64,000 nt of DNA. It comes from Candidatus Adlerbacteria bacterium. GTDB lineage: Bacteria > Patescibacteriota > Minisyncoccia > Phycocordibacterales > SBAW01. A model generated the notes under the pieces. It saw only the letters and a list, made by a program, of their open reading frames with translations, did no database searches and was not told the origin of the DNA. Of the stretch, positions 1,860-44,521 are shown one piece after another; position 1 is the stretch's first letter; the number at the start of each line of letters is the position of its first letter. The DNA is taken from positions 175,866 to 239,865 of the forward strand of contig JARIGK010000004.1 in the NCBI GenBank assembly GCA_029288895.1, written 5' to 3'. The position numbers and the translations under genes were made by a program.

Positions 1860-3875
<2,016 letters not shown>

Positions 3876-3889: not shown

Positions 3890-4183
3890 GTGATTTCGAA
3901 AGAAGAAATAGCCAAGCTGGCGGAGCTCTCAAGGATAGAGCTGAGTGATGCGGAAATGGAGTCCTTGCAAAAGGATATTTCTAATATTTTGGACTACGTG
4001 GGCCAAGTGAGCGCTGTTGAAGGCGCAGAAGAAAAAGAAGTAGGTTTGAACCACAACGTTATGCGCGACGATGTGCCGTACGACGAAGGCTCGGCGCTTA
4101 AAGCTGCCCGCGAGGATATTGTGAAAGCATTCCCCAAGAGCGAGCGCGACTATAACGTCGTGCGCAAGATAATTGAGAAGTAA
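3890..4183 (+). CDS. gatC: Asp/Glu-tRNA amidotransferase subunit C
   Basis: 97 aa, MISKEEIAKLAELSRIELSDAEMESL... typical GatC; GTG start; directly upstream of gatA. Confidence 0.8.
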   Translation: MISKEEIAKLAELSRIELSDAEMESLQKDISNILDYVGQVSAVEGAEEKEVGLNHNVMRDDVPYDEGSALKAAREDIVKAFPKSERDYNVVRKIIEK

Positions 4184-4191
4184 GGATTGAT

Positions 4192-5610: not shown

Positions 5611-5641
5611 TTTTCGGCGTACAATAGGGAGGACAGTTTCT

Positions 5642-21411: not shown

Positions 21412-21436
21412 AGCCCTAATGGTATAGTTGGAGTAT

Positions 21437-23056
21437 ATGAGTATGTTGAGCAGGGTATTTGGCCGTGTCCGCGCGTGGGCATGGTACTCCAAAGTTGCTG
21501 CGGCAGTAGCGGTTGTTGCTGTTGTGGGCGTGGGCGTGCATGCACTGACGCGCACCAATGACGCTACTACTACAACGCCACAAGTGTCGCACGTGCGCGA
21601 AGCATCCGTTGCGAGCCTTTCGTCGCAGAGCGTGGGGCCATTGCCTGTCGTGGGCAACGTGACATCGCTCGATCATGCAACACTGCTTGCGCAAACGTCT
21701 GGTCCTGTGACGAGCCTTTCGAAATCGCTTGGTTCGTACGTCGCCGCGGGCGGCGTGATAGGCGAGCTTGAAAACAGCGCCCAGCGCGCAGCCGTACTCC
21801 AAGCACAAGGTGCGTACGAAGCAGCGCAAGCGTCATTTGCAAACACCAGCGGGACGTCGGCGCAAAACTCTGGCATCGGTGCAAATCAGGCAGTGCAAAA
21901 TGTGGCAAACACACAAGCAAGTGCAAACACTGCGATGCAAAGCCTCTACTCGGCGCTCGACGACGCGGTGCATACCAAAGCCGACCTTTTGTTTACTAAC
22001 CCGCGCACTAATGCAACGCTTTTGCTGACGACAACCGACAGCCAGCTTGCTATTACCTTGCAGAACGAACGTGTCGCACTTGAGCACACGCTTTCGAATG
22101 CAAACAGCAAAGCAAATGCATCAACGCGCGCGGACACTGACGCTGACATCACAACGATGGCCGCGTATGGGCAGGCGACGGTAACCTTCCTTAACCATTT
22201 GGTCGAGGCGGTAAACAAAGCGCTGCCTACAGAAACTGTCACAGCGGCGCAAATTTCCGGGTACCAAACATCCATTGCTGCGGCACGCACCGAAGTAGTG
22301 AGTGCGCTCTCGAGCCTTTCGTCGGCAAAAACAGCGTATGATGCCGCGGTGGCAAGCGCTGCAACGGCAAGCAACACTGCGGGCACTGGCACAGCAAACA
22401 GCATTAGCGCAGCCGGGGCGCAGGTGACGCAGGCACAAGGCGCACTTGATGCTGCACGCTCGGCGCTTGAAAAAACAATCATCCGCTCGCCGATTTCCGG
22501 CACCATTGTAAGTTTGCCCATTACGCGCGGCGGCTTTGTCACTGCGGGCTCGCAAGTGGCAGTCGTCTCAAACCCAGGCGCTTTGGAGGTTGATGCGTAT
22601 GTAACGCCAAGCGATGCGAAGACCATTGTCGTCGGTGGCGTGGCAACCATAGGGCAGGGCACCCGCGGCGTTATCGTTTCTATTGCACCAGCGCTCGACC
22701 CAACCATCGGCAAAATTTTGGTAAAGATTGGTATTCCGGGCAGCCAAGCAGCGCTCACCGATGGTGACACCGTCTCTGTCACACTCGCACGCTCGACGCC
22801 GGCACAGGTCAAACAACAAACAAAGACGCCAGAAGGTACGGTGCTTATTCCGATAGTTGCAGCAAAAATTACGCCTCAAGGCCCCGTCGTCTTCCAAGTG
22901 ACTGCGTCATCGACTTTGCACAGCATCCCTGTGACGCTCGGCACTATTTTGGGCGAACAAGTTACCATCACAAGCGGTCTTACCCCTGACATGAGTATCG
23001 TTACCGATGCGCGCGGGCTCTCCGATGGCGACACGGTCGTCGTCGACACTCAATAA
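21437..23056 (+). CDS. Efflux periplasmic adaptor (HlyD/membrane fusion protein family), long form
   Basis: N-terminal TM helix, very long Ala/Thr/Gln-rich helical region, C-terminal beta-barrel motifs (IRSPISGTIVSL, VVSNPGALEVDAYV); 3 nt upstream of the RND gene. Confidence 0.8.
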   Translation: MSMLSRVFGRVRAWAWYSKVAAAVAVVAVVGVGVHALTRTNDATTTTPQVSHVREASVASLSSQSVGPLPVVGNVTSLDHATLLAQTSGPVTSLSKSLGSYVAAGGVIGELENSAQRAAVLQAQGAYEAAQASFANTSGTSAQNSGIGANQAVQNVANTQASANTAMQSLYSALDDAVHTKADLLFTNPRTNATLLLTTTDSQLAITLQNERVALEHTLSNANSKANASTRADTDADITTMAAYGQATVTFLNHLVEAVNKALPTETVTAAQISGYQTSIAAARTEVVSALSSLSSAKTAYDAAVASAATASNTAGTGTANSISAAGAQVTQAQGALDAARSALEKTIIRSPISGTIVSLPITRGGFVTAGSQVAVVSNPGALEVDAYVTPSDAKTIVVGGVATIGQGTRGVIVSIAPALDPTIGKILVKIGIPGSQAALTDGDTVSVTLARSTPAQVKQQTKTPEGTVLIPIVAAKITPQGPVVFQVTASSTLHSIPVTLGTILGEQVTITSGLTPDMSIVTDARGLSDGDTVVVDTQ

Positions 23057-23059
23057 CCT

Positions 23060-26000
23060 ATGTTGTGGCTGTGGAATTTCTTCCTGGAGCGCAAACAATT
23101 TAGCTACGTCCTTATTGCGACGCTTGTTATTGCAGGGTTCTATGCGCTTTTGCAGATCCCAAAAGAAAATGCGCCGTCTATTGTCATCCCCAACGGCATC
23201 GTTACGGTTGCCTTGCCGGGCGCCTCGGCCGAAGATATCGAGCGCCTCGTCACGAACAAACTCGAAGATCAAATTTCTGGTCTCTCGAACCTCGACACCA
23301 TTTCATCAAACTCAAGCGATGGCGTTTCCGTACTAAACGTACAATTCAGCGCAAACGCCGACGTCAACCAATCGATCCAAGACCTGCGCGACGCAGTAGC
23401 CAAAGCGGTGCCTAACTTGCCGCAAGATGCCACGGCGCCGCAAGTCAGCAAGATCGATATCACCAATCAACCTATTCTTGTTGTTTCGATTTCGGGCGAC
23501 CTGCCATTGCCAGCATTTTCTGCCTTGGGCACATCAGTGTCGGATGACTTGAAGAGCATCCCTGGAGTTTCGGAAGTGGATGTTACTGGCGTGCCAGATA
23601 GAGAGGTGGATGTCATCGTCAGCAAAGAACAGCTCGAGCGATATGGCTTGCGCTTGGTTGATGTGATTGGCGCTATCTCGTCTGCAAACGCTGCGGCACC
23701 TGCAGGCAGCATTTCGATAAACGGCGTTAACTACACCGTGAACTTTAAAGGCGGCATCGACGACCCGTCCGAAATACAAAACATTGCGGTTGGCTCCAAA
23801 AATGGCGTGCCGATTTATGTGCGCGACATAGCAGTCGTCTCCGACGGCCTGGCACCTGCAAAAACATATTCGCGCCTCTCGCTTGGCGGCAAACCAAGCA
23901 ATCAAGCCATGACGCTTATGGTCTACAAGCAGTCGGGCGCGAGTGTGCAAGGTGTTGCCAACGCTGCAAAGAAAAAAGTCGAAGCGTTGAAAGGCACATC
24001 GCTCAAAGGCCTCGATGTGTTTATCTCGCCGTCGACAGACCAGGGCGTGCAGGTTTCAAAGCAGTTGGGCGACTTGGCCGAAACAGGGCTCGAAACTGTC
24101 GCACTCGTGCTCATTGTGCTCTTTATCACTATCGGTTGGCGCGAGTCTGTTGTGGCAGGGCTCGCTATCCCGATGTCCTTCCTTATCGCGTTTATCGGGC
24201 TCTACCTTACCGGCAATACGCTTAACTTTATTTCGCTCTTTGCACTTATTTTAGCCGTCGGCATTTTGGTCGACTCTGGCATCGTCGTGACGGAAGCCAT
24301 CCATGCACGCCGTCCATTATTTAAAGACTCGATGGATGCTGCACGCGCGGCACTCCACGACTACGCGTGGCCGCTTATCGCGGGCACCATGGCGACAGTG
24401 GCCGTGTTCGCACCGCTCTTCTTTATCTCGGGCATCGTTGGCAAATTTATCGCTGGTATTCCGTACACGCTTATCTTTGTGCTCATCGCATCGATCTTCG
24501 TGGCGCTTGGTATTGTGCCGCTCATTGCCGTGCTTTTTTCGTCGAGCCAAACGCAGAGCCGTTTGGAGGAGCTCCAAGAAATGTATACCGAAAAGACAAC
24601 GCATTGGTATAAAGAAAAATTGCGCATCATGCTCGAGAGTAAACGCGCACAGCGCCTCTTCTTGCGCGGGCTTGCGGCGCTCTTTGTGTTGTCGCTCGCG
24701 CTGCCATTTACGGGTTTGGTGCAAACAACATTCTTCCCGCAAGACGACCAAGATTTTGTCTACATAAACATCCAAAAACCAGAAGGCACGACGCTTGCAC
24801 AAACAGATTTGACTGTGCGCGAGGTGGAAGAGATCTTGTACAAAAACAGCGATATCTCGTCGTTTGAAACAACCGTTGGCCAAAGTTCTGGGCTTACGGG
24901 CTCGGGCTCGTCCGGCAGCAACCAAGCAAACATCACAGTAAACTTGCCGCTTGGCCACAAAAAGACAAGCACCAGCATTTCAAACGAATTAACACAGCAG
25001 CTTGGCGTTATCACCGATGCAGATATTCAAGTGCTCCAGGCAAACAATGGGCCATCGTCGGGCGCGCCGATTCAAATACAGTTTAAAGGCGAGAATTTAA
25101 ATGACTTGATCACCGCAGCACAAGCAGGGAAGCGATTGCTTGCAAGTATGCCGGATGTCAAAAATATCACTGACACGACGCAAAACAATGGCACTGCGTT
25201 TGACTTGAGCATTGACCGTGGGAAAGCAACGGCGCTTGGCCTCTCGACACAAATGGTGGCGCAAACATTGCGCGCCGCGATCCAGGGCGCCAAGGCCACA
25301 AGCATCACAGAGCCGCAAAAAGATATCGACGTTATCGTAAAGCTCAACCTAAACACCAACTACATCGACCCGTCCGACACGACGCGCACCACGATTGATG
25401 CAATTAAAAATCTTTCGATCCAAGGCAGCACGGGCCCTGTGCTCTTGGGCTCGGTGCTCACAGACAGCCTGGGGCAGAGCAACGCAGCAATTGCCCACAA
25501 AGACAAAGTACGTATTGAAACAGTATCGGCATACCCGAGCGACAACACAACGGCCAATGCCGTAGTCGGCGCGTTCCAAAAACGCCAAAGCGAACTGATT
25601 TTGCCCGAAGGCGTGACGGCTTCGTATGGCGGCGAAACACAAGACGTAAATAAATCATTTACAGAAATGTTTCTCGCGCTTATCGCGGGGCTCGTGCTTA
25701 TGTTTATGATCCTCATCATTTCATTTAACTCGATCCGCCACACGCTCCAACTGTTGCTTATCGTGCCGCTCTCGCTCATCGGCGTCTTGGATGGTTTGGC
25801 GCTCACGGGGCAGCCGGTGTCGTTTACCTCGCTCCTTGGCATCATTGCGCTCGGCGGCGTCATCATTAACCACGCCATTATATTGATGGACTCAATGATC
25901 CATCAGCTGCATGCGCACCCGGACAAGTCGCTCGTTGATATTGTCGTCGACTCATCTGCAACGCGCTTGCGCCCGATTGTGCTGACAACTATTACTACTG

Positions 26001-26161
26001 TTGTGGGTATGATCCCGCTCGCGCTGTCGAATGCTACATGGGGTCCGCTGGCGTACGCTGTGATGTTTGGCTTGACCTTCGCTATCTGTCTCACGCTTGT
26101 GCTCGTGCCAGTGCTCTTCTTCCGCTATCACACGCGCATGCGCGCAAAAGCAACGCACTAG
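23060..26161 (+). CDS. RND-family efflux transporter permease (AcrB-like)
   Basis: 1033 aa, 12-TM architecture with two large extracytoplasmic loops; AcrB-type motifs (SLFALILAVGILVDSGIVV...). Confidence 0.9.
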   Translation: MLWLWNFFLERKQFSYVLIATLVIAGFYALLQIPKENAPSIVIPNGIVTVALPGASAEDIERLVTNKLEDQISGLSNLDTISSNSSDGVSVLNVQFSANADVNQSIQDLRDAVAKAVPNLPQDATAPQVSKIDITNQPILVVSISGDLPLPAFSALGTSVSDDLKSIPGVSEVDVTGVPDREVDVIVSKEQLERYGLRLVDVIGAISSANAAAPAGSISINGVNYTVNFKGGIDDPSEIQNIAVGSKNGVPIYVRDIAVVSDGLAPAKTYSRLSLGGKPSNQAMTLMVYKQSGASVQGVANAAKKKVEALKGTSLKGLDVFISPSTDQGVQVSKQLGDLAETGLETVALVLIVLFITIGWRESVVAGLAIPMSFLIAFIGLYLTGNTLNFISLFALILAVGILVDSGIVVTEAIHARRPLFKDSMDAARAALHDYAWPLIAGTMATVAVFAPLFFISGIVGKFIAGIPYTLIFVLIASIFVALGIVPLIAVLFSSSQTQSRLEELQEMYTEKTTHWYKEKLRIMLESKRAQRLFLRGLAALFVLSLALPFTGLVQTTFFPQDDQDFVYINIQKPEGTTLAQTDLTVREVEEILYKNSDISSFETTVGQSSGLTGSGSSGSNQANITVNLPLGHKKTSTSISNELTQQLGVITDADIQVLQANNGPSSGAPIQIQFKGENLNDLITAAQAGKRLLASMPDVKNITDTTQNNGTAFDLSIDRGKATALGLSTQMVAQTLRAAIQGAKATSITEPQKDIDVIVKLNLNTNYIDPSDTTRTTIDAIKNLSIQGSTGPVLLGSVLTDSLGQSNAAIAHKDKVRIETVSAYPSDNTTANAVVGAFQKRQSELILPEGVTASYGGETQDVNKSFTEMFLALIAGLVLMFMILIISFNSIRHTLQLLLIVPLSLIGVLDGLALTGQPVSFTSLLGIIALGGVIINHAIILMDSMIHQLHAHPDKSLVDIVVDSSATRLRPIVLTTITTVVGMIPLALSNATWGPLAYAVMFGLTFAICLTLVLVPVLFFRYHTRMRAKATH

Positions 26162-33100: not shown

Positions 33101-34014
33101 ACAAGGTTGTAACAGTTAACTTAAATGGGCGCTCGTACGAGTTCGAGGAAGGCGCATACGATGCATTGCGCCGCTACTTGGATGCTGCCGAACATAAGCT
33201 CGCCGATAACCCCGACAAGCAGGAAATCCTGTCCGACTTGGAGCAGGCTATTGCTGAAAAGTGCGACCTCTACCGAACTCCGCACAAAAACGTAATCATT
33301 GGGGCTGATATGGACGCAGTGCTCAAACAGATGGGCGATGTTGATGGCGAGCAGGGTGAGCATGCGTCGCACGAAGGCGCGCATACTGGTACGCACACGC
33401 CGCGCCGCTTGTACCGCCTGCACGAGGGCCGTGTCTTCCTTGGCGTTTGTTCTGGGTTGGCTGCGTATTTTAATGTCGACGTCACACTCATCCGCGTGTT
33501 GTTTGTGATCTTGGCATTTATCACGCACGGCGGGTTTGCGTTTGGGTATGTGCTCATCGGTATCTTTATCCCTGAAGCCGACACGCCCGAGCAAAAAGCG
33601 CAGGCCTATGGCGCAGCATCAGTCACCGCAAACGACCTCATCAACCGCGCACACAAAACATACGAAGATTTTAAAAACAGCCGCGATTGGCATAAAGCGA
33701 CTCATGACGCTCATGAAATTCGCAAACAAGCCGCTGAGCACGCAAAAGAATGGAAGCAGATGTGGAAGGCAGAGCGCCGCAAACAGCGCCGCCAACACCG
33801 CGCCTATTCGTACAACTATCAATACCGCATGTCGCCCATGTGGGAGGCAGTGCACTCAATAATCGGGATGGCGTGGTTCCTCCTTATTGTGTATGTGGGC
33901 TGGCTGCTCTATACCCATGTGCCTGCAGCACACCATGATATCGACGTCATAGCAGCATGGCTCCACGGTTTGTTGCTCCATATAGGGTCGTGGGTCGCCG
34001 CGCGTATCCACTAG
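33097..34014 (+). CDS. PspC-domain membrane protein
   Basis: RLYRLHEGRVFLGVCSGLAAYFNVDVTLIRVLFVI = PspC domain; 4-nt overlap with padR. Confidence 0.7.
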   Translation: MNKVVTVNLNGRSYEFEEGAYDALRRYLDAAEHKLADNPDKQEILSDLEQAIAEKCDLYRTPHKNVIIGADMDAVLKQMGDVDGEQGEHASHEGAHTGTHTPRRLYRLHEGRVFLGVCSGLAAYFNVDVTLIRVLFVILAFITHGGFAFGYVLIGIFIPEADTPEQKAQAYGAASVTANDLINRAHKTYEDFKNSRDWHKATHDAHEIRKQAAEHAKEWKQMWKAERRKQRRQHRAYSYNYQYRMSPMWEAVHSIIGMAWFLLIVYVGWLLYTHVPAAHHDIDVIAAWLHGLLLHIGSWVAARIH

Positions 34015-34054
34015 CCGTTTGGGGCAGGGGTAAAAACGGGGGTACTATTGGGGT

Positions 34055-34534
34055 ATGTCACCTGACCAAATCCCGCCCTTGGCTGGCCGCTCGACCATTA
34101 CCACCGTTGTCGTTGTTGTTATCTTGATAGCGCTTTGTCTCGTTGCATGGGCATACCGCAATACACCGCCGTTCTCAAACTTCTTGGGTTCGAGTGTGTC
34201 GAATGTTATGCCTGCCGAAACTGCAAAACCAATAAACACCGTCTCGTACTCGTGCGACCAAAACAAAGTTCTTATCGCACAGTACTATGAGGGTCCGTCG
34301 ACTGTTGCAGCAAACGGTATGCCAATCCCTGGCGGCCATGTGGTGCTCACACTCGCGAACGGTTCGATGATGAGCGTGCCGCAAACCGTTTCTGCAGATG
34401 GTGCACGCTATGCAAATGCAGATGAGTCGTTTGTCTTTTGGAGCAAAGGCAATGGTGCGTTTGTAACCGAAGGTGCAAACCAAACACAGACGTACACCAA
34501 CTGCGTTGTAAAAAGCCAAACCGCTGGGCAGTAG
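34055..34534 (+). CDS. MliC-like (membrane-bound lysozyme inhibitor of C-type lysozyme) family protein
   Basis: N-terminal anchor, then YSCDQNKVLIAQYY...SADGARYANADESFVFWSKGNGAFVTEG...C resembles the MliC S-x-SGA-x-Y / W-x-KG core. Confidence 0.55.
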   Translation: MSPDQIPPLAGRSTITTVVVVVILIALCLVAWAYRNTPPFSNFLGSSVSNVMPAETAKPINTVSYSCDQNKVLIAQYYEGPSTVAANGMPIPGGHVVLTLANGSMMSVPQTVSADGARYANADESFVFWSKGNGAFVTEGANQTQTYTNCVVKSQTAGQ

Positions 34535-34597
34535 CATCCATCGCGAAACGCTGTATAGTGATGCCAGTCTGGTCCTAAAGAAAAGAAAGGAGAAAGA

Positions 34598-34954
34598 ATG
34601 GCCTATAGAGGTCAGAAGAATAACCGCCAGAAGCGTTTTGATGATCAGCGATTCCCAGGCAAGGGAAAGCAACGCAAGACGGTGCGGACAGGTGAGCAGG
34701 CTGCGCGCATCAAAGATGCGCAAAGAGCCGCTGTGGCAAAGACAACGGATGTCGACGCTCCAGAGAAGTCCTACAAAAAGGGCGAAACGGTCAGCGTGGA
34801 TGGTTTCCCTTTGGCGTGGTACGTCGGGAAAGCAAAAGAAAAAGGCTATCTGCAGATTCTGGTCTCCGGGCATGAAGATGAAGGGCCTATCCTTGTTGCT
34901 GAAGAGCGCGTTGACGTGTCCGATATCCAAGTGCCATTCCCTCAGAAGATATAA
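34598..34954 (+). CDS. Hypothetical basic protein
   Basis: Strong Shine-Dalgarno AAAGGAGAAAGAATG; terminator follows. Confidence 0.55.
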   Translation: MAYRGQKNNRQKRFDDQRFPGKGKQRKTVRTGEQAARIKDAQRAAVAKTTDVDAPEKSYKKGETVSVDGFPLAWYVGKAKEKGYLQILVSGHEDEGPILVAEERVDVSDIQVPFPQKI

Positions 34955-34961
34955 CTCATAT

Positions 34962-34990
34962 GCTCCGCCACGTGCGGAGCGTTTTTTTGT
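34962..34990 (+). terminator. Rho-independent terminator
   Basis: GCTCCGC-cacgt-GCGGAGC + GTTTTTTTG. Confidence 0.7.
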
Positions 34991-35061
34991 TGGATATTGA
35001 TAGCCGCGTTGCGAGGTATATACTTATATATATGTATATGCATCACTGGGGCGTGGGGGAT

Positions 35062-35337
35062 ATGTGGTTTATTAATATGCCATTTGGGCTTGCTGCATTG
35101 TTTGGCGGCTTGGTATTAGTTGCAGTGCTCTGGTCGATTATTTGGAAGGGCTTGGCGCTCTGGCACAGTGCACGCCGCGGCCAGCCGTGGTGGTTTGTCA
35201 TTATGCTTGTGGTTAACAGCCTCGGCATTTTGGAGATCATCTACCTCTTTGGCGTAGCAAAACTAAAATTTGACCAACTCTTCTCGAAAGACTCGCACCG
35301 CCACAACGACCACACCCACACGCATCACCACAACTAA
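35062..35337 (+). CDS. Small 2-TM membrane protein with a His-rich C-terminus
   Basis: MWFINMPFGLAALFGGLVLVAVLW...WWFVIMLVVNSLGILEIIYLFGV, tail HRHNDHTHTHHHN; alternative in-frame starts at 35032/35038. Confidence 0.45.
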   Translation: MWFINMPFGLAALFGGLVLVAVLWSIIWKGLALWHSARRGQPWWFVIMLVVNSLGILEIIYLFGVAKLKFDQLFSKDSHRHNDHTHTHHHN

Positions 35338-35349
35338 ATAAAGAAAAAA

Positions 35350-35375
35350 CCGCCGGGTACAAGCCCGGCGGTTTG
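35350..35375. terminator. Bidirectional terminator
   Basis: CCGCCGGG-tacaag-CCCGGCGG flanked by an A-run and a T-run. Confidence 0.6.
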
Positions 35376-35774
35376 CTATCCGCCCGAATAGAGATGCATG
35401 TTGAGGTGCTCGAGCGCCAGAAGAATGGTCCCAGTCTCGATCCGACCCTCCCTGCCGCGCAAGGGTTCGATATCGCTTTCCTCCCAATGGAAGAAATTGA
35501 TGATGTCGCCGATGCTTTCGACCGCGATACCGTTCTTGGTGAGGACACGTTGGAAGTCGGCCCAAAACGTCGTGCCCATCGGGAACCTCTTCAGCTCCTC
35601 GAACGTCAGGTGCGTATTGTGGCGGTGAGGCGTGGGCCAGAGCGCATCATCGAGGTCGGCGTGTACCATCCCCAGATAGTGCGTGATGAGCAGATTCAAT
35701 ACCCGCTTTTGCTCGCTCGCCTGGTCGAGAACCTGGCCAGGCTGCGGAGGCGAGATAGGGTACACATTGGTCAT
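35376..35774 (-). CDS. Hypothetical protein
   Basis: 132-aa ORF downstream of and co-directional with alkB. Confidence 0.5.
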   Translation of the reverse strand: MTNVYPISPPQPGQVLDQASEQKRVLNLLITHYLGMVHADLDDALWPTPHRHNTHLTFEELKRFPMGTTFWADFQRVLTKNGIAVESIGDIINFFHWEESDIEPLRGREGRIETGTILLALEHLNMHLYSGG

Positions 35775-35822
35775 GAGAATCCCCTTGTGTGTTTCGTCTG
35801 CGGCAACTGTAGCAACAGAAGT

Positions 35823-36428
35823 TTATTTCGACAACTGAGGAGGTAATGTTCGAAACGTGATTGAATAGCGCAGGTCGGGGACAGGCATGACACTATGCTG
35901 CCATTCCCATCGCACCTGGCCTTGCATAATGTAGGCCGAGCGCGGCTCAAGTTCGAGGGTGATGATGTCGTTTTTATTTCTACTGCGAAGCGGGCGGAAG
36001 CGGATGCGCGACCAGCTACCAAGCGAAATGCCAACGATTGTCTCAAACGACTCATTGTCGACGTGCCAGCCTAATTGTGTCCCTTTTGAGTATTCGGTAA
36101 TCAAGGCTTCTGCGACGCGGCGCTTTTCAATCCCCAGCCACTTAGCGATTTTGTACTGCACAGGTTTTAAAAACGTTGGCAGTTCGGGCCCTGGGACGAG
36201 TCGATTCTTCCGGAAGTCGAACGACCACCCAAAGTTCATAATGCGGCGGTTGGCTGTGTACTCGCGGTACGGCGCATGGAAGAGGGGTAGGTTGCCGATG
36301 TAGGCCAACAAAATCTCTTCTTCATCCCGCGTCAGAAAATCCGGCTTGTATACAAGGCCGTTTGGCAGTGAGCGGGGTGTATCAAAGAGGATGAGTTGGT
36401 TGTTGGTGCGGTTCACGGTGTTATCCAC
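35823..36428 (-). CDS. alkB: AlkB-like 2OG-Fe(II) dioxygenase (alkylated DNA/RNA repair)
   Basis: HVDNE (HxD) ...IVGISLG...LELEPRSAYIMQG..R..WQHSV...RYSITFR matches the AlkB core. Confidence 0.75.
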   Translation of the reverse strand: MDNTVNRTNNQLILFDTPRSLPNGLVYKPDFLTRDEEEILLAYIGNLPLFHAPYREYTANRRIMNFGWSFDFRKNRLVPGPELPTFLKPVQYKIAKWLGIEKRRVAEALITEYSKGTQLGWHVDNESFETIVGISLGSWSRIRFRPLRSRNKNDIITLELEPRSAYIMQGQVRWEWQHSVMPVPDLRYSITFRTLPPQLSK

Positions 36429-36444
36429 AGATTAGTGTACCTTG

Positions 36445-36457
36445 TGTATAGTATACA
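36445..36457. promoter_or_regulatory. Perfect 13-bp palindrome TGTATAgTATACA in the alkB<>lexA divergent intergenic region; candidate LexA operator
   Basis: Only 53 bp separate the two start codons; the palindrome sits 25 bp upstream of the lexA ATG. Confidence 0.35.
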
Positions 36458-36481
36458 TACATCGCGTGGTAGGATATACAC

Positions 36482-37150
36482 ATGAACATCCAACATCTAC
36501 TAACCTTCAAGCAGCAGCGAGTGCTTGATGCGGTGCGTGAATATATTAATGAGGAAGATAGGTCGCCTACGCTCGAGCAATTGCGTGCAACGCTCGGCTT
36601 TTCGTCACTGCGCACCGTAACCCAGTATTTGGACATCTTGGAGCGGAAGGGCTACATCGTCCGCCGCAAAAATGCTGCGCGTAATATCGAACTGCGCAAC
36701 GTCGATGGTGCGTGGGGGACAGTCTCTATCCCTGTTATTGCCAACGTAGGCTGCGACGACCTTTCTGTTTTTGCACAAAATTCAAACTCGGCTGACGAGT
36801 TTTTGGAAGTCGACAAGCGCATTGTCGATGAAGAGGAAGGCGATATTGTGGCGGTGCGCGCCATCGGCGACAGTATGAATGACGCCGGCATTAACACTGG
36901 CGACTACGTGCTTATTCGCTTTACCAACGACGTGCGTGATGGCGACCGTGTGGCTGCAATCGTCAACGACATGGTGACGGTCAAACGTTTGGAGCGCCGC
37001 GACGGCATGACCATCCTGTGGCCGCAGTCTAAAGACCCGAAATTCAAACCCATCATTTTGAAGGATGATTTTAAAATCGCCGGCAAAGTGCTCTGCGTGA
37101 TCCCAAGCAACCAGATGGAAATGACAGAGGTTGTACCGCTTGAGGATTAA
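36482..37150 (+). CDS. lexA: LexA repressor (S24 peptidase)
   Basis: N-terminal wHTH, Ala-Gly cleavage region, catalytic Ser in GDSM and Lys in the C-terminal domain. Confidence 0.85.
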   Translation: MNIQHLLTFKQQRVLDAVREYINEEDRSPTLEQLRATLGFSSLRTVTQYLDILERKGYIVRRKNAARNIELRNVDGAWGTVSIPVIANVGCDDLSVFAQNSNSADEFLEVDKRIVDEEEGDIVAVRAIGDSMNDAGINTGDYVLIRFTNDVRDGDRVAAIVNDMVTVKRLERRDGMTILWPQSKDPKFKPIILKDDFKIAGKVLCVIPSNQMEMTEVVPLED

Positions 37151-37173
37151 ACACCCCGAACTATACTGGACGT

Positions 37174-37857
37174 ATGCGGAACCTCTTCCGATGGGCGATA
37201 CTCGGCGTCTTATGCGGCATCCTTATAGGTATTGCTGCGGTCGCATATGTCGATGTTTCAACTGCCCACTCTATCTACGAGCCATCCCAGGCACCCAAAG
37301 CGCAAGTTGCGATGGTGCTTGGTGCGTCTGTCGCATCAAGCGGCAAACTCTCGCCAGTTCTTAAAGAACGTGCCGACGTGGCTGCCTGGCTCTACGAGCA
37401 CCATGTTGTTTCAAAGATATTAGTCACAGGCGACAACTCGACCCTTCAATATGACGAGGTGTATCCGGTGGGCAAATATTTGCTGGCGCTTGGTATCCCG
37501 CAAAAGGATATCTTCCTCGACTATGCAGGGTTTGATACCTATAGCAGTATGTACCGTGCGCGCGACGTCTTCCGCGTAACGTCACTCCTTATTATTTCGC
37601 AGCGCTTCCATTTGCCGCGCGCTATATTTATCGCGCGCTCGCTTGGGCTCGATGCGCGGGGTATTGACGCTGCTGCCCCAGGCGAGAAGTATTTTGTGTA
37701 CTCGCTTCGCGAGATCCCTGCGTCTTTCAAAGCCACGCTCGATGTTTTGTTTGCGCGTACGCCAAAATACCTAGGCGCCCAGTTCCCGGTCTCGGGGAGT
37801 AGTGATGCAACGTGGGTCGGCGGAAGTGCGCAGATGGTATACTTTAAATCTCAATAG
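37174..37857 (+). CDS. DUF218 / SanA-ElyC-like membrane-anchored protein
   Basis: N-terminal TM, then conserved ILVTGDNS...YDEV...LLIISQRFHLPRA typical of the YdcF/SanA (DUF218) fold. Confidence 0.6.
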   Translation: MRNLFRWAILGVLCGILIGIAAVAYVDVSTAHSIYEPSQAPKAQVAMVLGASVASSGKLSPVLKERADVAAWLYEHHVVSKILVTGDNSTLQYDEVYPVGKYLLALGIPQKDIFLDYAGFDTYSSMYRARDVFRVTSLLIISQRFHLPRAIFIARSLGLDARGIDAAAPGEKYFVYSLREIPASFKATLDVLFARTPKYLGAQFPVSGSSDATWVGGSAQMVYFKSQ

Positions 37858-37859
37858 GT

Positions 37860-38486
37860 ATGGATAAAGGGCGTCTTGAAGCATTTAGTGACAGCGTATT
37901 TTCAATTGTCATTACGCTTTTCATTTTTAATATCCACGTACCGGAACTCCCGCCGCCTGTGACTGACGCGGCGCTCTGGTCGGCGCTCGGGGCAATGTTC
38001 CCTGTGTTTGCAATCTTCATTACTACCTTTGCCGTACTGTCTGTGTTTTGGATCAACCACCATTTTCTGTTCCACAGCATGGTAAAGACCGTCGATCGCA
38101 GGCTGAACTTGCTTAACCTCGTGTACCTTATGTTTGTGACATTCTTGCCCTTTAGCGCAAGCTTGTTGGGTACCTACCATGCGACGCGCCAACCGGCAGC
38201 TATCATCTACGGGCTCAATGTGCTCGCTATCGTACTTCTTTCGTCAATAATGCTTTCGTACGTGCGGCATCGCCCTGCCATCATGATGGATGATGTGTCG
38301 TCGCGTACGCTCACGCAGGCACGAGTGCGCGGAGGAGTATCGCTGTGCTTGTATGCGCTTGGGCTCGTGTGCACCTTCTTTTCTGCACCGCTAAGCGTCT
38401 TCTTCTACACTGTGCCGGTCGTATTCAACATTATTCCAGGTACGCTCAACCTCGTGGAGCGCATATTTGGATTTACTCTCGTATAA
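37860..38486 (+). CDS. DUF1211 / TMEM175-like putative K+ channel
   Basis: [19 protein letters not shown] signature in TM1, 6 TM; 3 nt after the previous gene. Confidence 0.65.
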
Positions 38487-38508
38487 CCTGGTTTGCTATA
38501 CTGACCAT

Positions 38509-38886
38509 ATGGATGAAAAAGAATTTAAAGACAAACTAACGCCCGAGCAGTACGAAGTCCTCCGCCAAAAGGGGACCGAGGCGCCGTTTAGCGGCAAGCT
38601 TTTGCACGAGAAACGCGACGGCATGTATGCGTGTGCCGCGTGCGGCAACCAGCTCTTTTCGTCAGATACTAAATTTGATTCTGGCACGGGTTGGCCATCG
38701 TTCGACCAGGCTATTCCAGGGTCCACCAAAATTATCGAAGACACCTCGCATGGTATGCACCGGGAAGAGGTGGTGTGCGCGCGTTGTGGCTCGCACTTGG
38801 GCCATGTCTTTAACGACGGCCCTACGGAAACAGGTAAGCGCTACTGCATCAATTCGGTCTGTTTGGACCTAGAGGCAAAGGAGTAG
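38509..38886 (+). CDS. msrB: Peptide-methionine (R)-S-oxide reductase
   Basis: CxxC...CxxC zinc site (CAACGNQLF...[16 protein letters not shown]) and the catalytic region. Confidence 0.85.
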
Positions 38887-38946
38887 CCAAGCCCGAGGAG
38901 GGCGGTATACTAAAGAGGTACTCACTAACTTTGTAGTTTTTTACCT

Positions 38947-39249
38947 ATGACTCTTGCAATACGTTGGATTATCGCGATTATTGTTTTGGCAGCCTTGGGC
39001 TGGCTTGTATGGTGGAGCGGTTGGCTCACGCCTAAAACGCCAGGCACGCCCATGGGCCAGGCTACAACTGCGTCTACGACTCCTACCACTCAACAGGACG
39101 CGCCTATTAATGGCATGAGCGCATCAAACGATGCCTCTGATGCTGCTGTGGCACAGGACACTGCAGCAATCGATGCGCAGATGAATGCATACACAACAGA
39201 TACCTCGGGCGTTGACTCGAGCATGAACGATAAAGCTATCAGCCAGTAA
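38947..39249 (+). CDS. Small membrane-anchored protein (shares a DTAAIDAQ motif with 39261 and 58796)
   Basis: TM helix plus Thr/Ala-rich tail. Confidence 0.45.
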   Translation: MTLAIRWIIAIIVLAALGWLVWWSGWLTPKTPGTPMGQATTASTTPTTQQDAPINGMSASNDASDAAVAQDTAAIDAQMNAYTTDTSGVDSSMNDKAISQ

Positions 39250-39260
39250 TCACATCCTGT

Positions 39261-40076
39261 ATGACTATCAAAAAGATTTCCTACATTCTCGCAGTGCTTG
39301 GGTTTGGAATGACATTGGCGCCGGCATTTGCAATGGCACAGACGGCAGGCGTTGGTGTCTCGGCTAACGCAACTGTTACAACGCCTGCAGCAAAGGTAGA
39401 AATGAGCGCAACTGCCATGACAAATGCGAAGGCGCGTGGCGATAAAGAACTCGACCGCCGCGTACAAGCACTCACCGATGCAAACATCCGCGTTCAGGCG
39501 ATGCAGAAGGTAACGCCAACCTTTAAAGACAACTTGGCAACGGCGCTCCAGACACAGATCACTGCATTTAATGCACTCAAGGCAAAGATCGATGCAGATA
39601 CTGATGCTGCAACATTGAAGGCAGATATACAGTCGATCACTCAGTCATACCGCGTATACGCGCTCGTGCTCCCGCAGGTACACATTGCAGCTGCGGCAGA
39701 CCGCGCAGTCGCTATCTCTTCGATGATGCAGACGCTTGGCACTAAGTTGGCAGCACGCATCCAGGCAGCAGGGCAGGCAGGTGCGGATGTCACTGCGCTC
39801 AATGCAACCTTGTCTGACTTGGGCACCAAGATCTCGGATGCAAATACGCAGGCACAGGCTGCTGTTACCGTAAGCGCAGCACTTGCCCCAGACAATGGCG
39901 ACAAAGACAAAATGGCATCAAATAATGCAGCACTTAAAACGGCACGCACTGATTTGACCACTGCAGGTGCTGACTTGAAGGCAGCTCGCAAAGACATCGA
40001 CACGCTCGTCAAAGGGCTGAAGAAGGTAGAAGCAAGTGCCTCGGCTACGAGCACTGCGTCGACTACCACGCACTAA
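39261..40076 (+). CDS. Secreted Ala-rich coiled-coil protein
   Basis: Signal peptide MTIKKISYILAVLGFGMTLAPAFAMA, heptad-like Ala/Thr/Gln/Asp/Lys-rich sequence. Confidence 0.5.
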   Translation: MTIKKISYILAVLGFGMTLAPAFAMAQTAGVGVSANATVTTPAAKVEMSATAMTNAKARGDKELDRRVQALTDANIRVQAMQKVTPTFKDNLATALQTQITAFNALKAKIDADTDAATLKADIQSITQSYRVYALVLPQVHIAAAADRAVAISSMMQTLGTKLAARIQAAGQAGADVTALNATLSDLGTKISDANTQAQAAVTVSAALAPDNGDKDKMASNNAALKTARTDLTTAGADLKAARKDIDTLVKGLKKVEASASATSTASTTTH

Positions 40077-40083
40077 CTACTCC

Positions 40084-40803
40084 ATGCCGCTTGTTATTGG
40101 CATCGCTGCAGCTCTCTCAACGCTTGTTGGGGGAGCTGTTGCGTTACGATTGCGCGACCGCTTGCACTTGATATTGGGGTTTAGCGCGGGGGCAGTTATT
40201 GCTGTTGCATTCTTTGACCTATTGCCTGAAGCGCTCACGTTGGGCGGCAGAGCGCACGAGCTTTCGACTGTCACGTCATTCGTGGCGCTTGGCTTCTTAC
40301 TCTACTTGTTGCTCGACCGGTTGCTTGTATTGCACAGCCACGGCCATGCGGACGATGCCGAGCATGATCATTCGCGCGGCCACGTGCGTGCAGGCTCACT
40401 TTCGCTCCACAGTTTTCTCGACGGTGTAGGTATTGGTTTGGCATTCCATGTGTCGCCCACGGTTGGCTTCCTTGTTGCGGCAGCGGTCTTGGCGCACGAT
40501 TTCTCGGACGGCATCAATACAGTTAATGTCTTGGTACGCCACGGCGGCACAAAAGCACAGGCAATGCGATGGCTTGTTGTCGACGCACTCGCGCCCATTG
40601 CGGGCATCATACTGACGATGTTTATAAATGTGGGCGAAGGTACGCTTGGCCTGCTTCTTGCGCTCTTCTCTGGCTTCTTCCTCTACATTGGCGCGTCGGA
40701 CTTGATTCCCGAAAGCCATCACGTACACCCAACCTTCTGGACTACCTTTATGACCCTCTTGGGCGCACTCGTTCTCTTTGTCGCAATCTCAATCGCAGGC
40801 TAA
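40084..40803 (+). CDS. ZIP-family metal transporter (ZupT-like)
   Basis: His-rich loop HSHGHADDAEHDHSRGH, HSFLDGVGIG and LAHDFSDG metal-binding TM motifs. Confidence 0.75.
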   Translation: MPLVIGIAAALSTLVGGAVALRLRDRLHLILGFSAGAVIAVAFFDLLPEALTLGGRAHELSTVTSFVALGFLLYLLLDRLLVLHSHGHADDAEHDHSRGHVRAGSLSLHSFLDGVGIGLAFHVSPTVGFLVAAAVLAHDFSDGINTVNVLVRHGGTKAQAMRWLVVDALAPIAGIILTMFINVGEGTLGLLLALFSGFFLYIGASDLIPESHHVHPTFWTTFMTLLGALVLFVAISIAG

Positions 40804-42290
40804 GCCTCGACCATAATAGGTTCGTCCAATTTCTTTTCGGGGACGCGGAGGAAGAGTGCTGCAAAGGCGCCTACGGCAAGAAGGGAAGCGGCGGTGATAA
40901 ATATCACGGCGTACGCGTCTATCTGCGCTTTTAATTCGATAAGTGTAATAAACTGTTGCGTCGCAGCTTTGGTGTGTACGTTGAGCAGGCTGTTTTGAGC
41001 GATCTTGAGCACGTTGTTGTTTGTGGTGCTCTGGAGCAATGTGCCAAAGAGCGCGATGCCGAATGCGCCCGCGATATTTCTGCCAAGCGCCAAGATAGAT
41101 GATGCGACGCCGATTTCTTCCTGCGGCACAATCGCAGCAATCGCGTTTGTGCGCTGCGCCATACCAAAGCCCAACCCAAAGGCCATTACGAACATGGGGA
41201 TCATAATGTCGATGGCCGTGGAACGTACATCAATAAATGAGAAAAGGTAGAGGCCAAACGCCGCAACAATCGTTGATGCAAAAATCACATAGCGCGGCTG
41301 CACGCGGCCTGTGAGTGCGCCGCCGATGGGCGCCGCAAACATCATTGCAAATGCCATCGGCATAAAAAGGTAGCCCGACTCCGTGGCATCGTATGCAAGG
41401 AATGTTTGTGCAAATACGGGGATAAGGAAGATGCTGCCCATAAGGCCCATAAAGACGAGGAAGTTGTTGCCAAGCGTGTTGATGAAGGTCCAGTTTTTAA
41501 AGAACTTCAAATCCACGATTGGCTCCGGATGTCGTTGTTCGATATATACAAAGATGGTTGTGGCAACAACAACGGTGATATAGCAGAGGATGCTGTTAAG
41601 CGAGAGCCAGCCCCAGTCGGTACCTTGGTCGAGCACAAAGACGAGGCTCGATAGCGCAATGCCCAATACCGACGCGCCCCACCAGTCGAAGCCTTTTGGC
41701 TTCTTTTCGTTTTTTGATTCCTCGATATAGATGATTGCCAAAATCATGCCGATGACGCCCACCGGGATGTTGATGAGGAAGACCGAGCGCCAGCCAAAGC
41801 TGTCGATAAGCGGGCCGCCTACAAGCGGGCCAAACACTGCTGCAGCGGCAAACGACGACGACCAAATGCCGAGTGCCTGCGCGCGCTCTTTACCCTCGCG
41901 GAAGGTAAACGCGATGATTGCCATGGCGGTGGGGTAGTCGGCGGAACCTGCAATTGCTTGGATGACGCGGAAGACAATCATGGAACCCAAGTTCCACGAA
42001 AGGCCTGCGAGCGCCGAGCCCACGATAAACATCGCAAAGCCTGTGAGATAGACGCGTTTGCGCCCTATGGTGTCGCCGAGCTTGCCCCAAATCGGCACAA
42101 AGACTGCGTTAGCCAAGATATAGGCAGTTGCGATCCAGCCTGCGGCCGAGACCGTGATCGAAAAGTCATTGATAATTTTGGGCAGCGCCAAGTTAACGAT
42201 GGTCTGGTCGAGCCGACCAAGAAACGTACCCATTATCACCGTCAGCAATATCATCCAACGGTACGGATTTTGCGTCGTACCTTCTGGCAT
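40800..42290 (-). CDS. MFS transporter, DHA2 (EmrB/QacA) family, 14 TM
   Basis: 496 aa; motif A-like GRLDQTIVNLALPKI, G-x-LGDTIGRKR. Confidence 0.85.
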   Translation of the reverse strand: MPEGTTQNPYRWMILLTVIMGTFLGRLDQTIVNLALPKIINDFSITVSAAGWIATAYILANAVFVPIWGKLGDTIGRKRVYLTGFAMFIVGSALAGLSWNLGSMIVFRVIQAIAGSADYPTAMAIIAFTFREGKERAQALGIWSSSFAAAAVFGPLVGGPLIDSFGWRSVFLINIPVGVIGMILAIIYIEESKNEKKPKGFDWWGASVLGIALSSLVFVLDQGTDWGWLSLNSILCYITVVVATTIFVYIEQRHPEPIVDLKFFKNWTFINTLGNNFLVFMGLMGSIFLIPVFAQTFLAYDATESGYLFMPMAFAMMFAAPIGGALTGRVQPRYVIFASTIVAAFGLYLFSFIDVRSTAIDIMIPMFVMAFGLGFGMAQRTNAIAAIVPQEEIGVASSILALGRNIAGAFGIALFGTLLQSTTNNNVLKIAQNSLLNVHTKAATQQFITLIELKAQIDAYAVIFITAASLLAVGAFAALFLRVPEKKLDEPIMVEA

Positions 42291-42293
42291 AGA

Positions 42294-42941
42294 TTAGTTT
42301 TTGTAGACCCAGATCTTTGCGGACATACCGTTTTTGAGTTCGGGATGTGCCGCGGTGTCGAAGCGAACTTTGACGTCGAAGTCTTGTTCTTGGCGTTTGT
42401 CGGAGATGTTAAAGACAACATCGCCCGACTCTGCGCTTGGGGCGACCTCGTCAACAATGCCGGTATATTTTTGCCCGCCGAATGCATCGACAGTAAACTC
42501 TGCGCGTTGGCCAGCATGGATATCGACGAGGCCTTTGTCTTCTGCAATTTGGCCTACGACGCGCAACTGTGTCGGGTCGATTACTGCGACGACTGTTTCG
42601 TTTTGGCCAATTGATTTGCCGATGTTGTTATTGGTGGTGATCACAAGCCCGCCGTTTTGCGATTTGATAAGTTCGGTGCCGACCTGTGCTACTACAGTGT
42701 TTGGCGCAATAGTGTCGCCTTCGTGCACATAGACTGCTTTTAATATGCCGCTTGCGCCAGGGCCCAAGTCGACAACAGGCGCTTCGATCTGCGATTTGTC
42801 GATGTAGACAGTCTTCGATGCCGCGGCAAGGTATGCAGCGCCTGCGATGCCGCCGCCTATGACGATGACAAGGAACGCGGCAAGGACAAGCACGCGGCGA
42901 TCAAGACCTTTCTTTTCTTCTGTTGGTTGTGTAGGTGCCAT
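42294..42941 (-). CDS. HlyD/EmrA-like membrane fusion protein, short form
   Basis: N-terminal TM, biotinyl-lipoyl-like hairpin (ILKAVYVHEGDTIAPNTVVAQV) and beta-barrel C-terminus; 215 aa; 3 nt upstream of the MFS gene. Confidence 0.7.
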   Translation of the reverse strand: MAPTQPTEEKKGLDRRVLVLAAFLVIVIGGGIAGAAYLAAASKTVYIDKSQIEAPVVDLGPGASGILKAVYVHEGDTIAPNTVVAQVGTELIKSQNGGLVITTNNNIGKSIGQNETVVAVIDPTQLRVVGQIAEDKGLVDIHAGQRAEFTVDAFGGQKYTGIVDEVAPSAESGDVVFNISDKRQEQDFDVKVRFDTAAHPELKNGMSAKIWVYKN

Positions 42942-42946
42942 AAAAA

Positions 42947-44521
42947 TTATTTTGAATTCACGAGATACTGGTCGCCCGCAGAAAGACCCGAGGTAACTTC
43001 AATGTTGGTATCGTCAGCGATGCCTGTTTGGATTTGTTTCTCGATTGGGGTTTTGCCGCCCGGCACGAGCACGAATGTGTTTGCGCCATTTTGCAATACT
43101 GCGCTTTTCTGTATCACCACAACGTTCTGTTTCTGTGCAGCTAAGATCGTCGCATTCGCACCCATGCCTGTTGAGATGCTTTCGTCATTGTTTGTAAACT
43201 GGAGTACGACTTTGTACCCAGACATGCCGCTCTCTGTCGTAGGGGAGCGGTCGATAGACGCAACCGTTGCGGGGAAGATCTTGCCGCTGCCGTAGGCATC
43301 GAGCGTCACCTGCGCGCTGTCTCCCGTCTGTAACTTTGCAACATCAACTTCGCTCACGTAGAGCTTCACCTGCAAGGCGCTTTGTGGTGTAAGCGACACG
43401 GCAACGGTATTTGGTGCGACTGTTTGGCCCGCCTTTACATTGACGCTGGCGACAGTGCCGGAAAACGGCGCGACGATAATATTATTTGCAATTTGTGCTT
43501 CTATACTTGCGACCTGCGCCTTTGCTGCATCAACTTGCGCTGTCTGTGCTGCGATGTCTTGGCTCGTTGCGCCAGCTTGGATCTTGTTGAGTGCATCTTG
43601 TGCCGACTGCACTGCCAATTTGCCCGATGCAATTTGCTGCTGCGCGCCTTGCAGAGAAAGTATGAGTGAACTTGCGGTGCTGTTGAGTGTGCTGACTGAC
43701 GTTTGTGCTGTTGCAATCTGTGCGGCAGTGAAATTGCTTGACGGTACGGCATTTGCAAGTGCTTGGAGAAGCGTGCTCGTGTATGTGCGCACGTTTGTCA
43801 GTTGTACGATAGAGGCAGAGAGCGCTGCATCAATTGTGTGGGCGTCAGATGCGGTGTTGAGCGAATCTATCGTCGAACTCCAGGATGGAAGCTGCACATT
43901 CAAGGTGGTGCGAGCATTCGAAGCATCCACCGCAGCCTGGCTGTTTGATGTTTGGAAGGTAACGGTAGGCTGCGGCATCGTTGGTTGGTTAAAGAGTGCG
44001 TCTGTATTTTGGCGCACGCCATTGTAGGTTTTGTTGTATGCGTCTGTCAGCGTTGCGGGGATGTTGGCGTATACATTGGCAAGCGACTGCTGTGCTTGTG
44101 CGACTGCAGTTTGGCCTGATTGGACATCGGTGGCGCGGGCGCCTGCGTTTAAGGAGTCGAGCTTTGCCTGTGCTGCTTCGACATTAGCCTCTGCCATTGC
44201 TTCTTGCGCATGCAAACTTGCGGTGTCGAGTGCTGCGAGTACCTGGCCTTGGTACACCTGTGCACCAACGGATGCATGGACTGAAACGACACGGCCGCCG
44301 CCTACAAATGCGAGATTAGGGTTTTGTGAAGGTTCGACAGTGCCTGAGCCCGTGACAGTTTCGTTAATTGAACCCATCTCAACCGTAGCAACAGACGACT
44401 GGGGTGAGCGAGTTGAGACGAAGTAATACACACCGCTACCCAAGGCGATGACAACAACCGCTCCAAGCGCACTCATAACAAGCGGGTGGGCGAGAACTTC
44501 TTTTTCAAAAAATGATTTCAT
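42947..44521 (-). CDS. HlyD-family periplasmic adaptor, long coiled-coil form
   Basis: 524 aa; N-terminal TM, lipoyl-like (GTVEPSQNPNLAFVGGGRVVSVHASVGAQVYQGQVLAAL), ~300-aa Ala/Gln-rich coiled coil, C-terminal barrel. Confidence 0.7.
   Translation of the reverse strand: MKSFFEKEVLAHPLVMSALGAVVVIALGSGVYYFVSTRSPQSSVATVEMGSINETVTGSGTVEPSQNPNLAFVGGGRVVSVHASVGAQVYQGQVLAALDTASLHAQEAMAEANVEAAQAKLDSLNAGARATDVQSGQTAVAQAQQSLANVYANIPATLTDAYNKTYNGVRQNTDALFNQPTMPQPTVTFQTSNSQAAVDASNARTTLNVQLPSWSSTIDSLNTASDAHTIDAALSASIVQLTNVRTYTSTLLQALANAVPSSNFTAAQIATAQTSVSTLNSTASSLILSLQGAQQQIASGKLAVQSAQDALNKIQAGATSQDIAAQTAQVDAAKAQVASIEAQIANNIIVAPFSGTVASVNVKAGQTVAPNTVAVSLTPQSALQVKLYVSEVDVAKLQTGDSAQVTLDAYGSGKIFPATVASIDRSPTTESGMSGYKVVLQFTNNDESISTGMGANATILAAQKQNVVVIQKSAVLQNGANTFVLVPGGKTPIEKQIQTGIADDTNIEVTSGLSAGDQYLVNSK

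Follow-up and report, generated by a model that had tools for sequence, protein, structure and literature searches.

A conserved tandem repeat as the predicted LexA operator upstream of lexA in a Paceibacteria genome

The 64-kb window analyzed here (contig JARIGK010000004.1; all positions are those of this stretch) carries a lexA gene whose start codon is separated by 53 nt from the first possible start codon of a divergent alkB-like oxygenase gene. This spacer contains a tandem repeat, TAGTGTAC-c-TTGTGTAT at 36433–36449, that is conserved upstream of lexA in related genomes and that we predict to be the clade-wide LexA operator (probability roughly 0.7); judged from sequence, the spacer is probably a lexA promoter under ordinary autoregulation, with a motif of a known kind. 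An earlier note on this DNA had proposed a perfect 13-bp palindrome in the same spacer as candidate for a noncanonical SOS-type operator. The location was well chosen, but the element conserved there is the tandem repeat and not the palindrome. LexA homologues place the window in the Patescibacteria, within the Paceibacteria and near Ca. Adlerbacteria.

Results

A tandem repeat is conserved upstream of lexA

The window (WIN) was compared with 80 lexA loci from species-representative genomes and with the locus of the closest relative (L321; 93% LexA identity); labels of the type L321 and L001–L080 denote the lexA loci of relatives, and labels of the type L203–L317 include metagenome loci. The regions upstream of lexA were aligned, and the information per column was calculated in bits over 74 promoters. 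About 75 of 81 lexA promoters showed the same order of elements: TTATCC[A/C]CA, 3–7 nt, TTGTGTAT-n-TTGTGTAT, an A-rich stretch, and an extended −10 element. The core pattern GTGTAT-N3-GTGTAT was present with two mismatches at most in 75 of the 81 upstream regions. The aligned repeat block reads A-TT-GTGTAT-n-TT-GTGTAT-T with a period of 9 bp, and the GTGTA cores of the repeats reached 1.6–2.0 bits per position. In the window, repeat 1 (TAGTGTAC, consensus TTGTGTAT, 36433–36440, plus strand) aligned with repeat 1 of the 74 related promoters, and repeat 2 (36442–36449, plus strand) is a perfect copy of TTGTGTAT; together they cover approximately −49 to −33 relative to the predicted transcription start.

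A position-specific scoring matrix (PSSM) was built from the aligned operators and used to scan both strands of 1.23 Mb with a strong-hit threshold of ≥11 bits. The hits were highly specific for lexA, with 77 of 83 located just upstream of this gene, as were 73 of the 80 matches with one mismatch at most. The window site scored 26.2 bits and was the sole PSSM site in the window, where the ligA and HhH-GPD glycosylase genes had no operator site. A scan of viral contigs for TTGTGTATnTTGTGTAT gave 120 listed matches, none with a TTATCC box, which were therefore considered chance matches. No Rfam match was obtained in 34000–40500.

In relatives, a further GTGTAT box in either orientation is often located between the −10 element and the ATG. 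In the window, this position is taken by an inverted box, ATACAC (36476–36481, minus strand), that abuts the lexA ATG. The sequence ATACAC(A) also directly precedes the ATG in L011–L013, L017, L034, L036, L060, L072, L078, and L321, and the same is true for a methyltransferase promoter in L048; other lineages carry a forward GTGTATAT in this slot.

The palindrome is not conserved as such

The palindrome TGTATAgTATACA (36445–36457, no strand) was confirmed in the sequence: it is a perfect 6+1+6 arrangement between the divergent alkB-like oxygenase gene and lexA, and its exact sequence occurs once in the window. The earlier note was also right that the region differs from canonical LexA boxes, as neither CTGT-N8-ACAG nor GAAC-N4-GTTC was found in 36429–36481. 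As a palindrome it is not beyond chance and is notable for its position only. The window holds 21 perfect 6+1+6 palindromes versus ~15 in shuffles, approximately 120 palindromes with spacers of 0–4, and two matches to this palindrome with two mismatches at most, versus 1.0 expected.

The left arm of the palindrome consists of the last five bases of repeat 2 and the next base. Most of its right arm belongs to a degenerate inverted third copy of the repeat, ATACATAC (36453–36460, minus strand), agreeing with ATACACAA at 6 of 8 positions. In members of the closest clade, the center of the palindrome is also that of an inverted copy, giving the consensus TTGTGTAT-N3-ATACACAA; 8 of 8 positions matched in L005, 7 in L321, L001, L006, and L007, and 6 in L002, L004, and the window. 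With at least 6 of 8 matches, the inverted copy was found in WIN, L321, L001, L002, L004–L007, L018, L035, and L055, and it is missing in most lineages. We read the palindrome as a by-product of repeat 2 and a degenerate inverted third copy limited to the closest relatives, or at best as an auxiliary box of this clade that is joined to repeat 2. It does not appear to be the SOS box of the lineage because relatives conserve the neighboring tandem repeat instead.

The earlier note had suggested TGTATA-N-TATACA as the LexA box of the lineage, which would be bound by a symmetric LexA dimer. Its perfect symmetry between divergent genes fits such a model, as does the inverted copy kept at the same center by the closest clade, and the flanking spacer bases vary among the closest relatives, which hints at selection. 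However, the columns of the right arm contained 0.01–0.23 bits over the 74 promoters, most lineages that share the LexA recognition helix have no inverted partner, and palindromes of this kind occur at about chance frequency. The proposal had been tied to a recurrence of the palindrome at other SOS genes; it was found, exact or with one mismatch at most, upstream of none of ~120 other lexA genes, and with the same tolerance at no umuD or restriction–modification promoter examined, an outcome that the note itself had named as speaking against its proposal. We consider it very improbable that the palindrome defines the SOS operator of the lineage.

The palindrome could also be promoter sequence only, with the minus-strand TATACT, a good −10 match, serving the leftward alkB-like gene and the symmetry arising by accident from A/T-rich, −10-like hexamers beside repeat 2. 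TATACT indeed recurs as a −10-like hexamer at this locus (37162, 37838, and 38497), the alkB-like gene needs a promoter within these 53–65 nt, and a promoter scan called the plus-strand TATAGT (36447–36452) a −10 element. The inverted partner is nevertheless kept at the same center in L001 and L004–L007, which lack the divergent gene, and we hold it doubtful that promoter function alone explains the palindrome. Such a function is compatible with a LexA operator at the tandem repeat and does not exclude it.

LexA is the likely binder of the repeats

The gene at 36482–37150 (plus strand) encodes a protein with LexA_DNA_bind (PF01726) and Peptidase_S24 (PF00717) domains. Gene families were assigned by Pfam and NCBIfam profiles with equivalog cut-offs, and LexA passed the TIGR00498 equivalog with 135.2 bits (cut-off 110.95). 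Ser131 (GDSM) and Lys168 (VKR) align with Ser119 and Lys156 of the E. coli protein and are invariant in 22 homologues. With the equivalog match, a winged helix–turn–helix plus S24 architecture, and the Ser/Lys dyad, the identification of the gene as lexA is well founded.

The recognition helix of the window LexA reads S-L-R-T-V-T-Q-Y. LexA proteins with a helix of the type S[LIV]RTV.QY have the repeats, and those with an altered helix (L076, L077, L079, and L080) are without them. Operators of this type are also associated with further classical SOS genes. In L064, a cassette of umuD-like (S24), Y-family (IMS) polymerase, and SRAP/YedK genes (894–3271, minus strand) is oriented away from lexA, with the operator region common to both; in L253, a umuD-like gene (1246–1623), after which the contig ends, is arranged in the same way; in L209, a frameshifted pair of umuD-like and IMS polymerase genes (4077–5768) has its own repeats in both orientations; and in L025, a umuD-like gene (1751–1993) directly follows lexA. 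The placement of the L253 umuD-like gene next to the box is identical to that of the alkB-like gene in the window, which makes the latter a likely coregulated gene. The assignment of the repeats to LexA rests on their position, on the covariation with the helix, and on the direct-repeat literature.

Several points weigh against this assignment. The covariation has four negative cases only and is confounded by phylogeny, and an activator would fit just as well to repeats that cover −49 to −33 where the promoter has no −35 element. Within the clade of the window, conservation of the inverted third copy is moderate, so that a palindromic site formed by repeat 2 and this copy may contribute to the operator. 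No recA or uvr gene was located behind the strong composite sites among the matches listed; tblastn searches with recA, uvrA, and ruvB queries gave no match in the loci analyzed or the window. Finally, the canonical Ala–Gly cleavage dipeptide is absent from LexA: at residues 87–93 (~36740–36760) an A-N-V-G-C-D-D motif, invariant in the 22 homologues, replaces V-A-A-G-E. BLAST aligns Cys91–Asp92 with Ala84–Gly85 of E. coli, and Val89–Gly90 is the only X-Gly, which makes the scissile bond uncertain; RecA-dependent cleavage is assumed.

A DnaA-box consensus accompanies the repeats

The first element of the conserved composite is the box TTATCCACA (36421–36429, plus strand), a perfect match to the DnaA 9-mer consensus TTATNCACA that has no second exact copy in the window. 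TTATCC[A/C]CA was found 3–7 nt before the repeats in 67 of the 74 lexA promoters, and 41 of the 74 contained the exact DnaA consensus. Outside these 41 lexA-proximal copies, TTATCCACA was found only 12 times in 1.16 Mb, close to the ~9 copies expected by chance. About a fifth of the boxes read TTATCCCCA, and L013 has TTATACACA, which is an exact inverted GTGTAT box. A function of TTATCCACA as reverse-strand −10 element of the divergent gene was rejected, as it is a poor −10 match and is conserved where there is no divergent gene.

DnaA also acts as a transcription factor, as for dnaA and nrd in E. coli and for a replication-stress regulon in B. subtilis; we know of no link between DnaA and lexA. 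The composite might thus not be, or not only be, a LexA operator: DnaA would bind TTATCCACA, and DnaA or another winged-helix factor on the repeats would activate these promoters, which lack a −35 element. The frequency of the exact consensus at lexA promoters, against a background frequency elsewhere, agrees with this idea, and so do the direct repeats in place of the −35 element, which resemble activator sites. The spacing between box and repeats ranges from 3 to 7 nt as for independent binding, the box keeps a C-C that is never accepted at the equivalent base of the repeats, and ATATCCACA persists in L076, where the LexA helix is altered and the repeats are missing. These three features suggest a separate binder such as DnaA. 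On the other hand, the box at 36421–36429 is single and not part of a cluster, and the TTATCCCCA variants are atypical and break the CACA core of DnaA boxes. Together with TTATACACA of L013, which would be a third LexA half-site, these variants suggest an inverted LexA half-site instead. Moreover, the repeats covary with the LexA helix, and lexA is generally autoregulated in other bacteria. We regard control of the composite by DnaA or another activator as unlikely. If it were true, expression of lexA, methyltransferase, and repair genes would be tied to the replication status and not to LexA cleavage.

As a separate observation, four TTATCCACA/ATCCACA boxes were found in L231 (minus strand, ~45–140) beside a chance match to GTGTAT-N3-GTGTAT; this region looks like a replication origin.

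Promoter signals point to leaderless transcripts

The motif TGnTAnnnT is conserved at +29 to +39 of the promoter alignment. In the window, it corresponds to the predicted extended −10 element of lexA, TGgTAGGAT (36467–36475, plus strand), which is followed by a 6-nt spacer to the ATG. Because the −10 element is only 6 nt away from the ATG, a leaderless lexA mRNA is predicted, with transcription probably starting at the A of the ATG or close to it.

Similar elements precede the three genes downstream of lexA, two of them in the extended form. A TATACT hexamer (37162–37167, plus strand), conserved in L321, is located 6 nt before the ATG of the DUF218 gene; TGgTATACT (37835–37843, plus strand) lies 16 nt before the ATG of the TMEM175 gene; and TGcTATACT (38494–38502, plus strand) lies 6 nt before the ATG of msrB, for which L321 has TGaTATACT-N6-ATG. 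In the whole window, TAnnnT hexamers occur 5–8 nt ahead of the start codon in ~13 of 69 genes, in several cases with a TGn extension, where ~5% would be expected by chance; examples are the starts at 1869, 3890, 7716, 16525, 17227, 36482, 37174, 38509, and 47216. Leaderless transcription seems to be common in this genome.

Restriction–modification genes carry the same composite

Within the genome loci, the only strong sites not belonging to lexA precede DNA methyltransferase genes (L048:2466–2497 and L055:2944–2975). Both sites carry the TTATCC box, and the L055 site belongs to a HaeII-type system with vsr. When metagenome contigs were scanned for the composite with a threshold of ≥30 bits, 54 sites were obtained among the matches listed, of which 33 lay before lexA, 20 before restriction–modification genes, and one at a contig end. 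The genes behind the 20 restriction–modification sites represent C5 methyltransferases of three lineages, N6/N4 methyltransferases of four, and a single NgoPII endonuclease. The full composite, TTATCC[A/C]CA plus TTGTGTATnTTGTGTAT plus an extended −10 element, was present ahead of restriction–modification genes at L048, L055, and the metagenome loci L203, L234, L235, L243, L249, L301, L305 (650–677), L309, and L317. A recent duplication of the lexA promoter was rejected as source of these sites, as they share the motif positions and not the spacers.

Methyltransferase genes are also located directly downstream of lexA in L020 (10658–11506), L021 (4484–5446), L056 (1332–2369), L067 (10683–11495), L228, and L288, where they fill the slot held by DUF218 and msrB in the window. 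This slot appears to be a second way of placing methyltransferases under the lexA promoter. The occurrence of one composite before at least eight unrelated restriction–modification genes suggests that mobile defense systems adopted the DNA-damage switch of their host. More tentatively, the SOS operator of the Paceibacteria could be a tripartite composite of a DnaA-box-like TTATCC[A/C]CA and two tandem LexA half-sites that wires together lexA–msrB, the alkB-like gene, a umuD–polY–SRAP cassette, and many unrelated type II restriction–modification systems; we give this broad version somewhat less than even odds.

The divergent alkB-like gene

The divergent gene (35823–36428, minus strand) encodes an AlkB-like 2-oxoglutarate/Fe(II) oxygenase. 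Its naming as alkB in the earlier note was accurate at the superfamily level (PF13532, E = 1e-16) and too specific beyond it, as the protein scored 19.8 bits versus a cut-off of 267 bits for the NCBIfam AlkB equivalog. Translation may begin at GTG 36428 or at GTG 36416. The distance of 53 nt to the lexA ATG, which agrees with the earlier note, applies to the first GTG; the N termini of homologues favor the second as a possible start, which would widen the gap to 65 nt. An alkB-like gene is divergent from lexA also in L321, L027, L028, L055, L060, and L068.

Downstream of the alkB-like gene follows an open reading frame (ORF) of 132 amino acids (35376–35774, minus strand) without a Pfam or NCBIfam match; L321 has a 117-amino acid gene in the same place. 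A strong intrinsic terminator-like hairpin (35347–35374, minus strand; 11-pair stem with 8 GC pairs, then a T-run) ends this unit. The alkB-like gene, the 132-amino acid ORF, and the terminator (35347–36428, minus strand) form an insert between a DUF5652 gene (34960–35337) and lexA. The insert is present in L321; in L001 and L003–L007, the closest relatives from the genome collection, a distance of at most ~400 nt separates the DUF5652 gene from the downstream lexA, and the alkB-like gene is missing there.

Genes downstream of lexA

The earlier note had described a DUF218/SanA-like, a TMEM175-like, and an msrB gene behind lexA, and all three identities held by profile. The gene for a DUF218/SanA-like membrane protein (37174–37857, plus strand) is followed by a TMEM175 family gene (37860–38486, plus strand) and by msrB (38509–38886, plus strand), which passes TIGR00357. 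The intergenic distances had to be corrected from 24 nt, 3 nt, and an overlap to 23 nt (lexA–DUF218), 2 nt (DUF218–TMEM175), and 22 nt (TMEM175–msrB). The supposed overlap of msrB stems from a TTG-extended ORF, whereas the ATG at 38509, the most likely start, gives a product of 125 amino acids as called in L321.

As for the proposed four-gene operon, the comparison supported the linkage of lexA and msrB, and the complete order held only in part among relatives. The msrB gene is the conserved downstream partner of lexA and was found downstream of it in ~46 of 80 loci. In 30 loci it follows directly, often with a gap of 0–30 nt (0 nt in L037, L039, and L052; 1–3 nt in L033, L035, and L041). The DUF218 gene is located downstream of lexA, usually ahead of msrB, in closer relatives only (LexA at least ~58% identical). 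The TMEM175 gene between DUF218 and msrB is confined to this genome, being absent at this position in L321 and all 80 loci; L012 has a TMEM175 gene 2.7 kb downstream of lexA. No terminator was found between lexA and msrB in the window, and DUF218, TMEM175, and msrB each have their own TATACT −10-like element, so that these genes may be reached by transcripts from the lexA promoter or may start independently. The lexA–msrB pair looks like an old, cotranscribed unit.

Two further observations concern membrane proteins. In L215 (98–560), the composite operator is followed by a predicted membrane peptide of 62–67 amino acids and then by lexA; this peptide might be a small membrane protein induced in the SOS response, e.g., a division inhibitor or toxin. 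The window also encodes, at 21428–26161 and 40800–44521 (minus strand), an AcrB-type RND transporter together with an adaptor of the HlyD type and, near an MFS transporter, another HlyD-like protein. Patescibacteria are thought to lack an outer membrane, and RND and HlyD genes are somewhat unexpected here.

Discussion

The proposed mechanism is that of an autoregulated lexA promoter located in the 53-nt spacer of a Paceibacteria (Ca. Adlerbacteria-like) genome. LexA would bind the tandem repeats and thereby occlude the −35 region and the start site, with the auxiliary inverted GTGTAT-type boxes at 36453–36460 and 36476–36481 accompanying the operator. It would repress lexA and the genes reached by read-through, which ancestrally would have been msrB and here would be DUF218, TMEM175, and msrB. 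The divergent alkB-like unit, with a promoter that has to overlap the repeats, would probably be repressed as well. Once LexA is lost after DNA damage, these genes would be derepressed. The sequence comparison itself establishes the conservation, geometry, specificity, and co-occurrence of the elements; the identity of the binding protein, the sign of regulation, the transcription start, and cotranscription are deduced from them.

A LexA-binding motif of the Patescibacteria was reportedly described by Sanchez-Osuna, Barbe, and Erill in 2017 (Environ Microbiol 19:3465). According to PMC7739468, direct-repeat recognition evolved several times independently, and Patescibacteria are among the cases cited. 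The published Patescibacteria motif, as covered there, agrees with the element described here in superphylum, direct-repeat architecture, and position upstream of lexA (PMC7739468). As a kind of motif, direct-repeat LexA sites are already published for Patescibacteria. Tandem LexA half-sites in lexA and umuDC-type promoters are also found in the Alphaproteobacteria and Acidobacteria (GTTC-N7-GTTC) and in the Balneolaeota (TTACACATATTTTWTACATA) (PMC8565304, PMC7739468), and the TGTGTA core observed here is what the Balneolaeota half-site TACACA reads on the opposite strand. These systems belong to other lineages and have a period of ~11 bp, whereas the element studied here has a period of 9 bp and is joined by the TTATCC[A/C]CA box and auxiliary inverted boxes. 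The classical SOS boxes of E. coli (CTGT-N8-ACAG) and Gram-positive bacteria (GAAC-N4-GTTC) likewise combine an autoregulated lexA, an operator that overlaps the promoter, and umuD or Y-polymerase genes in the regulon; they are palindromic, unlike the conserved element in this spacer. In the annotation of the window, the SOS box would accordingly be TTGTGTAT-n-TTGTGTAT with TTATCCACA as companion, and not the palindrome.

Regulated restriction–modification is known from systems under C-protein control and from the competence-induced DpnA of S. pneumoniae. As in those systems, the methyltransferases described here would be under a dedicated operator or a host stress or competence circuit. They differ from C-protein systems in that type II systems carry the host's lexA-type composite or are part of the lexA operon, with no C protein. 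If the composite indeed controls them, expression of methyltransferases and restriction enzymes would depend on DNA damage and possibly, via DnaA, on replication initiation. This would provide bacteria with tiny genomes with a built-in restriction alleviation, or with a defense triggered by damage or phages.

The fixation of a DnaA-box consensus beside the LexA repeats, the lexA–msrB pair, and the link to restriction–modification may go beyond the published motif, and the TTATCCACA box and the restriction–modification link are the parts worth pursuing. Through the widespread and often tight lexA–msrB pair, the core LexA unit of these ~1-Mb genomes would include an enzyme that repairs protein oxidation.

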